Positions 11,210 to 14,492 of a stretch of DNA of 64,000 bases are shown here, piece after piece (position 1 is the stretch's first letter; every line of letters starts with the position of its first letter). The position numbers and the translations under genes were made by a program. Location of the stretch: positions 42,283 to 106,282 of the forward strand of contig CAYTYP010000003.1 in assembly GCA_964441405.1 (NCBI GenBank). The letters are read 5' to 3'. This stretch comes from an uncultured Acidobacteriota bacterium (GTDB lineage: Bacteria; Acidobacteriota; UBA6911). The notes below the pieces were generated by a model. The model was not told where the DNA came from, made no database searches, and saw only the letters and a list, made by a program, of their open reading frames with translations.

Positions 11210-12814
11210 TTATCTCCATTCATCCACAGAGATGCTGGCAAGGTGCTTCAGATCTCCGGCTTGGAACAGAGCTTCAACTCCTCCTCCCGTCACCACAATC
11301 GAGATATCTTTGGGGCTGGCGAATTGAGGCGTCTTGGCATTCTTCTGGAGCCACTCGCTTAATTTTTCTTTCGTGTCGTAGCCTTGTTCTTTGAGAACTT
11401 TGGCCGTCAGCGGGTCGCAAATGACCAGGGCTCCGGCTCCGGTAAAGGTTTCCAAAACAAGTCCGATCTGGCGATCGAACATCAGCTTTGCCGCCGAACC
11501 TCCGTTCTTTGCGCCGGGATGGACATGAACGCCCAGTCCGGTGAATAGGCTAATGATGCTTTCCCCTTTCTTAAAGCCGCGCTGCAAGCTAAAGGGCTGC
11601 CAAGGGCTGTTTGCTTCATTTTCAGCAATTACGATGTTGTTATAGTTGAGGCTGTTGCCGAGAGATCCGTTGTAAGTTTCTCCCGTGATCCCTGCATTCC
11701 CTAGATTCTTTGAGAGCAGCGTCCACGCCCTGCCGATGGCGGCATTTGCCTGGCTAAAAGGTCCCAGTGCGCCTGTTTCGAAATTCATTCCGATTTCTTC
11801 CCGAACCGGTCCGTTGATCACGACAGCTCGAGCGGGAGAATCGGAGGAATTATAAAGGGACGGAATTCCTGAAGCCGCCAGAGCCAGGATTACAGGAAAA
11901 TATTCCGGTTTCGCGCCGGCCATCACGGCATTTACCGCGACTTTTTCCACGGTAAATTCCCAAGGTCCGAAATCGCCGCCGGCCATTTTGCCTACAACTT
12001 CATCCGGACGACGGCTGGTGCCTTTCAGCATATCGCTGACCTTCTGTTCTGTCGGCAGAGTGACGGGAAGGTAATCCGTCCATCCATTAGCCATGAAAAG
12101 ACGTTGCAAAACATCGGCAGTTTGAGGCCCGATCAATTTAGCGCCTGTTTTGACTTCCAGGAATCCGGTCTTTTTATCCTCTTCCGTCAGAGGCTTTGTC
12201 AGACCATTGACTATTTCCTGGATTACGGGCGCTCCCGTTTCCGGATTATTGCCTTCGATTTGAGCTTTATGTTGCGCGGGGGTTTTGCCGCTGACCGGAT
12301 GGGTTACGAAAACCAGGCGTGCATTAGGCATTCCTTTTTTTCGAGCCATGTTTTTGGCGACTTGCACGAAGCGATGGGTGGTAATTCCCACCGATGGTTT
12401 TCCCAACTTTTCAAGAGAAACGCAATTGCCGGCGACCGCCGGCGCACAGCTGTTTCAATGACCGACAGCCATGACGACAGCGTCGCCTTTTTCTTTTATC
12501 TCCGTCCATAGCTGAGCGTCTTCCTGGTCGTAAGAACCCGCCTTTTCCCTGAATACGAGTTTCGTCTTGGGCATGTTTTTAGAAAACCAGTCCATGGTAA
12601 CTCGCAGGAGGCTGGCGCCTCCCTCGTATTGGACATCGACAAAATAAACCGTCTTGCCGTCGAGCGTGTCGAGCCTCGGCGCCATGGGGATCAACGGAAT
12701 TGGCGGCGGCGTTCCTCGAGGATTTAAAACCGAGATTTTGGCCTCTTGTGCATACGGAGAAGCGGCCGAAATCATCCCTATTGCGATTAGCAGAAACACA
12801 TTTCTTATTCTCAT
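11210..12814 (-). CDS. Candidate secreted selenoprotein (UxxC motif); in-frame fusion of ORFs 12455..12814 and 11210..12406 through a UGA at 12455..12457
   Basis: Both ORFs are in the same frame (12814-12406=408). The only intervening stop is TGA in the context AVGH-U-NSCAPAVAGNC. The 16 intervening codons are all sense. The N-terminal part has a signal peptide. A hairpin GCCGGC-GGUC-GCCGGC starts 11 nt 3' of the UGA. Alternative reading: two separate genes, the downstream one starting at TTG with a weak RBS. Confidence 0.45.
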
Positions 12815-12861
12815 GGCCTTGCCTTAATAGTCCGTGTTATCCGCGGAAGCCCGCGGTTGAT

Positions 12862-13761
12862 TTATTTTTTAGCGGAGACAAAATTGTTCACGGTTTGCCG
12901 TATTGCGCGGATGTGATCCGGTCCGGCGCCGCAGCATCCTCCAATGATTTGTACTCCCAGGTTCAGCAGTTCAACAGCCTTTCCTGCGATGAAGTCGGGC
13001 GTTTCCGAATAGACCAAACCTGTCTCGGATTCAACCGGCAGACCGGCATTGCTTTGGATCGCGATGGGAAGCTTGGACCCTTGTCGAAACTCCCGGGCTA
13101 CTCCGATCATTTTTTCAATGCCGTCTCCGCAGTTCGATCCGATGATATTCGCTCCGGCTTTTTCCAGCGCTGAAATAGCGTCCTTAATGGATGCTCCAAA
13201 ATAAGTGAAGAAACCTTTCACAGTTTTTCCAAACGTCATAGTCGCCATGATTGGAATAGTGCTGTCCAGTTCTCTCACTGCCTTGATAGCAAGCGATGCT
13301 TCCGTCGGGTCTGCCATGGTTTCGATGCAAATCATATCCGGACCTGCAGCCAAAAGAGCTTGCACCTGGCGCTGGTAATTGGAAAATATCTCATCCGGTT
13401 CCGCATCGCCGTATGGCTTTAATATCCTGGCCGACGGTCCCATTGAAGCAGAAACATAGGCTTTGTCTCCCACAGCCCTGCGCACCGCTTCCACTGCGTT
13501 GCGATTTATTTCTTCCGTTTCGTTATCAAGGGAAAATTGCTTCAGCCGTAAAGGCGAAGCCCCAAAGGTATTGGTGGTAACAATCTCCGCTCCGGCTTCC
13601 AGATAGAGAGAAGCGATTTCTTCCAATATATAAGACTGGGTGAGATTATATAATTCGGGGGGGTCTCCCTGCTTTAAACCTCGTTGCATGAGCATGGTTC
13701 CCAGGGCGCCATCTCCTACGACAATATCTCCTCGATACAAGCGTTTTAATAAATCTTCCAT
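12862..13761 (-). CDS. Homocysteine S-methyltransferase family protein (MetH Hcy-binding domain / MmuM / BHMT-like)
   Basis: DGALGTxL...GAExxxTNTFGAS, C-terminal GGCCG Zn/Hcy-binding motif; start moved to the internal Met (MEDLLKRL) to avoid a 37-nt overlap, the ORF track gives 13806. Confidence 0.75.
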   Translation of the reverse strand: MEDLLKRLYRGDIVVGDGALGTMLMQRGLKQGDPPELYNLTQSYILEEIASLYLEAGAEIVTTNTFGASPLRLKQFSLDNETEEINRNAVEAVRRAVGDKAYVSASMGPSARILKPYGDAEPDEIFSNYQRQVQALLAAGPDMICIETMADPTEASLAIKAVRELDSTIPIMATMTFGKTVKGFFTYFGASIKDAISALEKAGANIIGSNCGDGIEKMIGVAREFRQGSKLPIAIQSNAGLPVESETGLVYSETPDFIAGKAVELLNLGVQIIGGCCGAGPDHIRAIRQTVNNFVSAKK

Positions 13762-13769
13762 GATATTTC

Positions 13770-14492
13770 CTAATTTTTCTGCAATCGCGCCAGCCGCTGC
13801 GCGCATTTATGCGTTTTACATTGAAGGCACAATGGGAAATCGGGCTTAAATTGATGTATTTCCTTTGGGCCTGCGATCAAGACTCCCGACAGCGATTTTT
13901 GAGGCTGCATATGAAAACCGGAACTGAGGTCGATCCCAATTTCCTCCGGATGCAGGAAGCGAAAGATCTTTTCCTGGCTCGACAGATGCCAGCCGCAATT
14001 GCCGGGACTATAGTGCAAAACCGTCAGGTTCCCGAATGGAGGGCTCTCCCCGGACAGATACTCTCCAAACCGTTGACTCATAAGGCTGCCAAGCAGTTCG
14101 GCTCCAGCCGTAGTGACCGCCTCAACCATATATCCCAATGCCGGCCCCCCCTGCTTGAATAACTCACCGGCTTTTTGAGTCAGCGAATCGCCCAAGGTTA
14201 CCACAAATAATGCCAGCGCTTCAGCGTTTGGATAAATCAACCTCACCGGATTTTCCGGAGAATTCAATCCCTCCCCATGATAGATCGGTTCGAAATCGGC
14301 CGGTTTTAAATCTGCCATCAATCCCTTAGGAACGGCCAGTTGTTTGAAGAGATCGATCGCCGATTCCAGAAGAATCATGATACGCGCAGGTATATTGGTG
14401 CGACCGGCCATCCCCTGAATTGCGAGCACTTCTTCAGAACTTGGAGTTACTTCATTAACGGCAAAATCGATCGCTTTTCTCATACTCCTCAC
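13770..14492 (-). CDS. Vitamin B12-dependent methionine synthase activation-domain-like protein (stand-alone)
   Basis: 240 aa; pattern resembles the MetH C-terminal reactivation (AdoMet-binding) domain encoded as a separate gene directly upstream of the Hcy methyltransferase; family assignment from memory. Confidence 0.55.
   Translation of the reverse strand: MRSMRKAIDFAVNEVTPSSEEVLAIQGMAGRTNIPARIMILLESAIDLFKQLAVPKGLMADLKPADFEPIYHGEGLNSPENPVRLIYPNAEALALFVVTLGDSLTQKAGELFKQGGPALGYMVEAVTTAGAELLGSLMSQRFGEYLSGESPPFGNLTVLHYSPGNCGWHLSSQEKIFRFLHPEEIGIDLSSGFHMQPQKSLSGVLIAGPKEIHQFKPDFPLCLQCKTHKCAQRLARLQKN

Follow-up and report, generated by a model that had tools for sequence, protein, structure and literature searches.

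Methionine synthase-related genes A-B and an adjoining UGSC-family selenoprotein gene in an acidobacterial genome: probably two unrelated units

The locus and its proposed interpretation

The 64,000-nt stretch of contig CAYTYP010000003.1 from an uncultured Acidobacteriota bacterium (hereafter the window; all coordinates refer to it) contains four co-oriented open reading frames (ORFs) between positions 10574 and 14492, all of them on the minus strand. In the order A-B-C-D they code for a stand-alone homologue of the activation domain of the methionine synthase MetH (A), a MetH-type homocysteine S-methyltransferase domain protein (B), a long-form selenoprotein of the UGSC family (C), and a CBM9-like protein (D). 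The original prediction, made from the sequence, had described A, B and C as a dismantled, corrinoid-linked methyl-transfer system in which C could be the methyl acceptor or a redox partner. We consider it rather probable that the cluster is a composite of two unrelated units, A+B and C.

The first unit is a pair of genes kept together, preceded by a promoter-like motif that is conserved as well, and would descend from a four-gene cassette. In B, a zinc-activated homocysteine thiolate would accept a methyl group to give methionine, and A, which combines a MetH reactivation-domain fold with a putative four-Cys metal site, would be the accessory subunit of B. In the acidobacterial clade of the window, the genes for an MttB-like methyltransferase and a corrinoid protein are no longer adjacent to A-B, and A has replaced the cobalamin-capping tyrosine. 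Since both the adjacent corrinoid gene and the capping tyrosine are gone, we infer that the pair either relies on a corrinoid carrier from another locus or now takes its methyl group from a different donor. The second unit, C, belongs to a large, mostly selenocysteine (Sec)-containing and often tandem acidobacterial paralogue family that normally resides elsewhere in the genome. It lies between B and the backbone gene D in one sub-lineage only, is probably co-transcribed with A-B by read-through in the window, and would have no part in A-B methyl transfer.

The A-B pair and its ancestry

The ORFs, their frames and the intergenic gaps (8 nt between A and B, 47 nt between B and C, and 69 nt between C and D) agree with the earlier description of three tightly spaced, co-oriented genes followed by one further ORF. 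Gene A probably starts at ATG 14483, behind a GAGGAG box. The resulting protein of 237 aa matches the call on the identical Logan contigs L001/L002. Gene B probably starts at ATG 13761, after the 8-nt gap that follows the stop of A, and codes for 299 aa.

Profile searches bore out the domains proposed for the three proteins: Met_synt_B12 in A, S-methyl_trans in B, and UGSC in C. The match of A to Met_synt_B12 (PF02965) is marginal, with 28 bits at a cut-off of 25. The profile of the A family matches TM0269 (1j6r) with an E value of 2.9e-10 and MetH chains with values from 1.7e-4 to 3.9e-3, and A has the characteristic fold of the MetH activation domain. B was matched by S-methyl_trans (PF02574) with 207 bits (cut-off 22) over profile positions 1-283 of 283. 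Among solved structures, the homocysteine module of Thermotoga maritima MetH (1q7m) is nearest to B, with 141 bits as compared with 65 bits for BHMT. The zinc-ligand motifs are kept in B, in which GSNCG aligns with GINCSLG of 1q7m and GGCCGAGPDH with its GGCCGTTPEH.

To place the pair among its relatives, metagenome contigs were scanned with the A-family profile, which gave 80 loci, many of them on short contigs. B follows A in 58 of the 80, and A is always upstream. At least five A loci have at least 3 kb of downstream sequence without B, and most of the others are contig ends near A. In the more distant loci, A and B are separated by a gene of about 210 aa, and another of about 500 aa comes before A. 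Reading of L097 and L100 identified the first as a corrinoid protein with the GDxHDIGKN signature and the second as an MttB-family methyltransferase. The order in this cassette is MttB-like methyltransferase, A, corrinoid protein, B. An MttB-like and/or a corrinoid-protein gene flanks A in 65 of the 67 loci whose A protein keeps the MetH tyrosine (GY-type), B being included where the contig reaches. In a tblastn comparison with the cassette genes, A of the window was 34-48% identical and B mostly 51-63%, with a few fragmentary matches outside this range. The cassette has been noticed in metagenome-assembled genomes (MAGs) from Antarctic lakes and proposed, without experiments, as a corrinoid-dependent methionine route whose methyl donor was left unspecified (2022, Environ Microbiol, PMC9324843).

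The clade of the window comprises about 20 loci, the named ones all from Acidobacteriota MAGs, with a backbone of a divergently oriented EF-G paralogue, A and B. Neither MttB-like nor corrinoid-protein genes were found in the flanks of any clade locus (up to 10 kb where the contig allows), and tblastn detected no homologue of either in the window. B12-binding and pterin-binding domains were likewise absent from the window ORFs of at least 230 aa, a set that leaves out the overlapping ORFs 36559..37290 and 46714..47559. The absence of both modules had been noted correctly from the sequence, and of the four cassette genes only A and B are clustered at the window locus. The A-B pair is kept as intact ORFs, with its invariant residues, across many acidobacterial MAGs, which rules out a reading of A and B as decaying pseudogenes. 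Because of the cassette relatives, the phrase "dismantled, corrinoid-linked methyl-transfer system" is fair for the ancestry of A-B, and a reduced derivative of a corrinoid-linked methionine-synthesis cassette appears to be a fair description of the pair. The part of that claim which counted the selenoprotein as a member was not supported, as described in the next section.

The loss of the adjacent MttB-like and corrinoid-protein genes coincides with a tyrosine replacement in A. At the position where MetH has RxxxGY, A of the window reads H-Y-S-P-G-N (HYSPGNCGW) and lacks the Arg1134/Tyr1139 motif. The 19 other A proteins of the clade read YY[SC]PGHCGW, and the tyrosine of xYSPGY is replaced in all 20 members. 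All 67 of the 67 GY-type A proteins read xYSPGYCGW. In Escherichia coli MetH, Arg1134 and Tyr1139 contact S-adenosylmethionine (SAM) (PMC1282579). The MetH tyrosine caps the upper face of cobalamin, and it was reported to be universally conserved and required for Co(II) reduction (PMC10567725). Four Cys residues are invariant in both groups of the A family, one in SPGxCGW and the others in a C-terminal CxxCxxxxC, and MetH and TM0269 have none of them in the aligned region. Their invariance suggests a metal or iron-sulphur (Fe-S) site next to the cobalamin/SAM face. We found no description of this four-Cys feature of the A family in the literature consulted for comparison.

Directly upstream of A, a promoter-like block, TTGCCA-N17/18-(G)CAGAATCT, is kept in 10 related loci, and the remaining intergenic region is unconserved and contains unrelated palindromes. 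In the window, this site leaves a leader of about 25-30 nt, which is too short for a riboswitch. In agreement with the earlier reading of the sequence, Rfam found neither a SAM nor a cobalamin riboswitch, whether the gathering thresholds or a limit of E<=1 was applied.

Two mechanisms were weighed for the pair. In the first, which we regard tentatively as possible, A-B would remain corrinoid-dependent in trans, drawing on a corrinoid protein and a methyl-donor methyltransferase whose genes lie at other places in the genome. Such a mechanism fits a B protein that is of the MetH type and similar to most cassette B proteins at the identities given above, and an A protein in which the fold of the activation domain and the four Cys are all retained. 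Split MetH systems with scattered modules are also on record, in Phaeobacter and Ruegeria (PMC12478193), and genes of the URO-D and DUF2284 families lie about 8 kb away from the cluster in the window. It is opposed by the replacement of the cobalamin-capping tyrosine in 20 of 20 clade members and by the absence of a corrinoid-protein homologue from the window and from the clade flanks that were covered. Moreover, all of the cassette-type loci (65 of 65) keep the corrinoid and/or the MttB-like gene adjacent, so that adjacency looks important when a corrinoid is used.

The second mechanism, which we rate only a little lower, is corrinoid-independent and MmuM-like. B would methylate homocysteine, selenohomocysteine or selenocysteine from an activated donor such as SAM or S-methylmethionine, and A would act as a subunit remodelled for donor binding or for regulation. 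The loss of the adjacent corrinoid and MttB-like genes, which coincides with the disappearance from A of residues equivalent to Tyr1139 and Arg1134, is in line with it, and so is the maintenance of the pair as intact ORFs. On the other hand, B resembles the MetH homocysteine module far more than it resembles BHMT and reaches only 88 bits against the NCBIfam model of MmuM-type homocysteine S-methyltransferases (PRK09485, cut-off 215), and the MetH SAM-binding residues are themselves among those changed in A.

Relationship of C to A-B

To see how often C accompanies A-B, genomes were scanned with an alignment of the C family. The scan gave 76 loci, almost all from Acidobacteriota. In three of them (L003-L005) A and B are present within 10 kb, and the other 73 are without A-B. 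The idea that these 73 are Cys-type paralogues was rejected after codon inspection, which showed that almost all are Sec-type: the 76 loci hold 128 in-frame TGA sites at the Sec position and four Cys codons. Cys forms dominate the protein database because gene callers truncate the Sec forms.

Among the relatives of the A-B locus, C follows B in nine distinct loci: the window (L001/L002), L003, L004, L005, L083, L120, L159, L160, and L168/L169, where L169 is a second contig with the gene layout of L168 and the two were counted together. Within this sub-clade, C is absent from five loci and decayed in one. The five loci without C (L084, L085, L089, L162 and the P0124 contig) have kept A-B. In L084 and L085, the window's own GGDEF-EAL and GH43 genes come directly after B, with neither C nor D. 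L162 lies on a complete chromosome (OY761556.1) and has no C at A-B, the nearest C homologue being 3.9 Mb away. In both L162 and the P0124 contig the order is A-B-TOBE-...-D, and A of the P0124 contig is 76% identical to A of the window and has the same HYSPGN motif. In L079, an intact A-B pair is followed by a remnant of C (6421..7089) with only aa 351-534, about the last 185 codons. Relatives with C (L003-5, L159 and L160) and relatives without it (L162 and the P0124 contig) alike have gene D downstream of A-B, and D therefore belongs to the syntenic backbone. The distribution is read as one putative insertion of C between B and D in the ancestor of the sub-clade, followed by vertical inheritance and several losses. 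The expected conservation of the gene neighbourhood was thus found for A-B, and for C within one sub-clade only.

In the relatives, the B-C spacer varies from a 4-nt overlap to 421 nt and contains unrelated GC-rich palindromes or none. The hairpin that had been reported in the spacer of the window is real, and its position had to be corrected by 13 nt (12841..12856 and not 12828..12843). It scores as terminator-like solely on the plus strand, where its T-rich tail lies, so it is no intrinsic terminator for the minus-strand genes. A consensus scan of the spacer revealed neither a minus-strand terminator nor a promoter-like site. A, B and C could plausibly be co-transcribed, both in the window and in the relative nearest to it.

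Several observations weigh against the separation of C from A-B. B followed by C is the commoner state in the sub-clade, with nine loci to five without C and one with a decayed copy. A 4-nt overlap (ATGA) joins the stop of B to the start of C in L168 and suggests translational coupling; in L003 such an overlap was obtained by extrapolation only, and the junction is uncertain. The 47 nt without a terminator between B and C of the window make co-expression likely, and co-expressed neighbours are often functionally linked. In addition, the signal peptide of C was judged by eye and not by a predictor, and the sample of loci depends on the search patterns and includes many short contigs.

These observations would be accommodated by a three-gene system in which, after the loss of the MttB-like and corrinoid genes, A-B works with the Sec/Cys site of C as methyl acceptor, carrier or redox partner. 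The orientation of C after B is the same in all nine loci, sometimes with an overlap, and those C genes that are linked to A-B make up an orthologue group of their own, with a particular type of selenocysteine insertion sequence (SECIS) and a CAPAVAG motif. Selenols are among the substrates that homocysteine S-methyltransferase family enzymes can methylate. The N-terminal domain of C also deserves attention here. A Cys homologue, P0002, which is 66-71% identical to C, was modelled in its stead (predicted local distance difference test score, pLDDT, 87). Its N-terminal domain is flavodoxin-like, and B12-binding domains are among the top structural neighbours. Nevertheless, we rejected C as a B12-binding domain, as the likeness is a generic flavodoxin-like one and the topological position of the motifs differs: GH-U-xx-C follows strand 3, and the DxHxxG motif of B12-binding domains follows strand 1.

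We consider the three-gene system unlikely. C carries a predicted signal peptide, and A and B do not. The loss of MttB-like and corrinoid genes and the Tyr-to-His/Asn change are also seen in the C-less L084, L085, L089, L162 and P0124 contig, and are therefore independent of C. C is decayed in L079 next to an intact A-B, and 73 of 76 C-family loci have no A-B at all. With this, the proposed role of C as methyl acceptor or redox partner was not upheld, and the link of C to A-B is probably only positional. A selenium-based methyl relay, in which the selenolate of C in its flavodoxin-like domain would be a protein-bound methyl carrier feeding B and replacing the MttB-like enzyme and the corrinoid protein, is very improbable and would require a non-exporting N-terminal segment of C or A-B acting before export.

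The selenoprotein C and its family

Judged from its sequence, C is a genuine UGSC-family selenoprotein of the long form, because it has an in-frame TGA codon, a conserved SECIS-like hairpin, and Cys homologues. The TGA (12455-12457) is the lone interruption of the frame and lies in the context VMAVGH-TGA-NSC, which gives the motif GH-U-NSC. Full-length homologues of C have Cys at this position, as GHC[SG]xC, and eight C orthologues in other assemblies carry TGA at the same codon (L003-5, L083, L120, L159 and L160 among them). C matches the Pfam UGSC model (PF24696) over aa 29-186 with 98.5 bits (cut-off 25). The score against NCBIfam NF041046 was 80.2 bits, below the equivalog cut-off of 125, and C is a domain-level member of the family in its long form. 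The "UGSC-containing protein" has been known since marine metagenome surveys, and a form fused to an uncharacterised domain has also been described (PMC2398784, PMC13188914).

The SECIS-like stem-loop of C has an apical hairpin, GCCGGC-GGUC-GCCGGC, at 12428..12443, with 11 nt between the UGA and the mini-helix. This hairpin is kept in all eight A-B-linked orthologues. The fold energy is unexceptional (z = -1.37; 19 of 200 shuffles fold as well), and the support for the element is positional. The 11-nt spacing and the GGUC loop resemble those of the E. coli fdhF SECIS. No tRNA-Sec was found in the window, and no domains of the Sec machinery (selA, selB, selD) were found among the scanned window ORFs of at least 230 aa.

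The putative signal peptide of C consists of a basic N-region, a 14-residue hydrophobic core and a cleavage region of small residues. The same layout, ending in (A/G)YAQE, is present in the C orthologues. By its predicted signal peptide, C is most likely a periplasmic or exported UxxC selenoprotein, which agrees, together with the in-frame TGA and the SECIS-like hairpin, with what had been proposed for it at the outset. Many paralogues of C begin with a twin-arginine-like NRRKLLSL sequence.

The C-terminal domain of C has no match in Pfam or NCBIfam, and the same part of the P0002 model gave no convincing match in the PDB. In a full-library search, the family of this domain comprised 3604 representative clusters. 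A Pfam scan of the members with atypical architectures revealed no extra domains.

Tandem arrangement is frequent in the C family: 41 of the 76 loci hold two to four tandem Sec paralogues, each with a SECIS-like hairpin (e.g., L008, L030 and L043). Most of the paralogue hairpins read CCAGCGACCGUCGGUCACUG, a type that differs from that of the window. Genes for Cys forms of the family are found in surroundings related to signalling or to the catabolism of organic acids. The Cys homologue closest to C, P0002, is adjoined by a cytochrome gene and another UGSC-long gene, with neither A nor B. Its contig (Joint Genome Institute (JGI) 3300075153, 8309 bp) contains a cytochrome c554-like gene, the UGSC-long gene on the opposite strand, and a fragment with a SelB winged-helix domain.

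The neighbourhoods of the family were also compared. Clustering of the neighbouring ORFs gave many spurious ORFs on the opposite strand, and only Pfam-confirmed clusters were used. A beta-propeller ORF of the pyrroloquinoline quinone (PQQ)-dependent dehydrogenase type is present within 7 kb of UGSC-long genes in 36 of the 76 loci. Genes of the extradiol-dioxygenase-like, RraA/aldolase-like, amidohydrolase_2 and alpha/beta-hydrolase types recur in 12-15 loci each. These recurrent PQQ-dehydrogenase and ring-cleavage-type catabolic neighbours may point to what the selenoproteins of this family do.

Gene coordinates and other features of the window

The coordinates of the genes and of the sequence elements associated with them are collected in Table 1.

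Table 1. Genes and sequence elements of the A-B-C-D locus in window coordinates.
Feature	Position	Strand	Remarks
Gene A, stand-alone MetH activation-domain homologue	13770..14492	-	longest ORF; four invariant Cys
Gene B, MetH-type homocysteine S-methyltransferase domain protein	12862..13806	-	longest ORF
Gene C, long-form UGSC-family selenoprotein	11210..12814	-	534 aa; ATG 12814; single frame across TGA 12455-12457
Gene D, CBM9-like	10574..11140	-	Pfam CBM9_1, 33 bits
Promoter-like site TTGCCA-18 nt-CAGAAT	14512..14541	-	upstream of A; consensus scan
Small GC hairpin CCGCGG-GCTT-CCGCGG	12841..12856		in the 47-nt B-C spacer; read from sequence
Predicted signal peptide of C (MRIRNVFLLIAIGMISAASPYAQ)	12746..12814	-	Sec-type (secretory); judged by eye
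UGSC domain of C	12257..12730	-	PF24696; aa 29-186; predicted flavodoxin-like alpha/beta fold, Sec after strand 3
SECIS-like stem-loop of C	12417..12457	-	starts at UGA; fold -21.6 kcal/mol
C-terminal domain of C	11213..12247	-	about 345 aa; uncharacterised; no Pfam or NCBIfam match

The gene divergent from A codes for an EF-G paralogue of 696 aa (14690..16780, plus strand). In every clade locus that reaches this position, the EF-G paralogue is present with 77-83% identity, compared with only 47-57% for A. A long imperfect inverted repeat (AAAAACGCCATGGATTCCAC...GTGAAATCTGTGGCGTTTTT) occupies 14550..14635 in the intergenic region between the two genes, upstream of the promoter-like site. The relatives have unrelated GC-rich palindromes or repeats in its place. 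A leader RNA at this position was considered and rejected, since only weak matches to microRNA (miRNA) models were obtained, on both strands, and the hairpin is unconserved in the relatives.

About 8 kb from D, the region 989..3036 (plus strand) codes for a 459-aa URO-D-family protein followed by a Cys-rich metal-binding protein of the DUF2284 family. The URO-D family includes methyltransferases of the MtaA/CmuA type. Members of the URO-D and DUF2284 families often accompany corrinoid methyltransferases; no B12-binding gene adjoins the pair in the window. On the minus strand, two sulfatase genes are located near a radical SAM/SPASM protein with a C-terminal SEC-C motif (27577..31055 and 20429..22255). 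We take this layout to recall the arrangement of anaerobic sulfatases with their maturases.

Significance and comparison with known systems

If active, A-B would be a stripped-down descendant of a still uncharacterised corrinoid-dependent cassette for methionine synthesis. Identifying its methyl donor would reveal to what extent a modular methionine synthase can be taken apart, and would tell as well if the four-Cys site serves as a built-in centre for electron transfer. The C family is abundant, mostly Sec-containing and tandemly expanded in Acidobacteriota of soil and peat, and its C-terminal domain represents a sizeable gap in the bacterial selenoproteome.

The system most similar to A-B is the cassette from the Antarctic-lake MAGs (PMC9324843), in which A and B belong to the same families and have the same order and orientation, and the four Cys of A are common to both. 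The window differs by the absence of the MttB-like and corrinoid genes, by Asn in place of the tyrosine of xYSPGY, and by the selenoprotein gene that follows B.

Split methionine synthases composed of separate modules have been experimentally established in roseobacters (PMC12478193). The synthase of Phaeobacter inhibens and Ruegeria pomeroyi (MtgC, MtgD, MtgE, RamA and DUF1638) resembles the window locus in that the homocysteine module is separate and the modules are stand-alone and can be scattered. However, reactivation is attributed there to RamA and DUF1638 and not by a homologue of the MetH activation domain. Pterin- and cobalamin-binding subunits were identified in that system, whereas neither was found in the window.

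Another stand-alone activation (AdoMet-binding) domain comparable to A is TM0269 of T. maritima (PDB 1j6r), which reads RISPGYG where A of the window has HYSPGNC. In contrast to A, with its C-terminal CxxCxxxxC, TM0269 has none of the four invariant Cys in the aligned region.

C, in turn, can be compared with the UGSC family described by Zhang and Gladyshev using Global Ocean Sampling (GOS) data in 2008 (PMC2398784). The UxxC motif with Sec, the existence of Cys homologues and a fusion to an uncharacterised domain, in that family the reported UGSC/Unknown_1 fusion, are shared features. C of the window differs as a 534-aa long form with a predicted signal peptide, a 345-aa C-terminal domain and the motif UNSC, and the predicted fold of its UGSC domain is flavodoxin-like, as opposed to the thioredoxin-like fold that was suggested in 2008.

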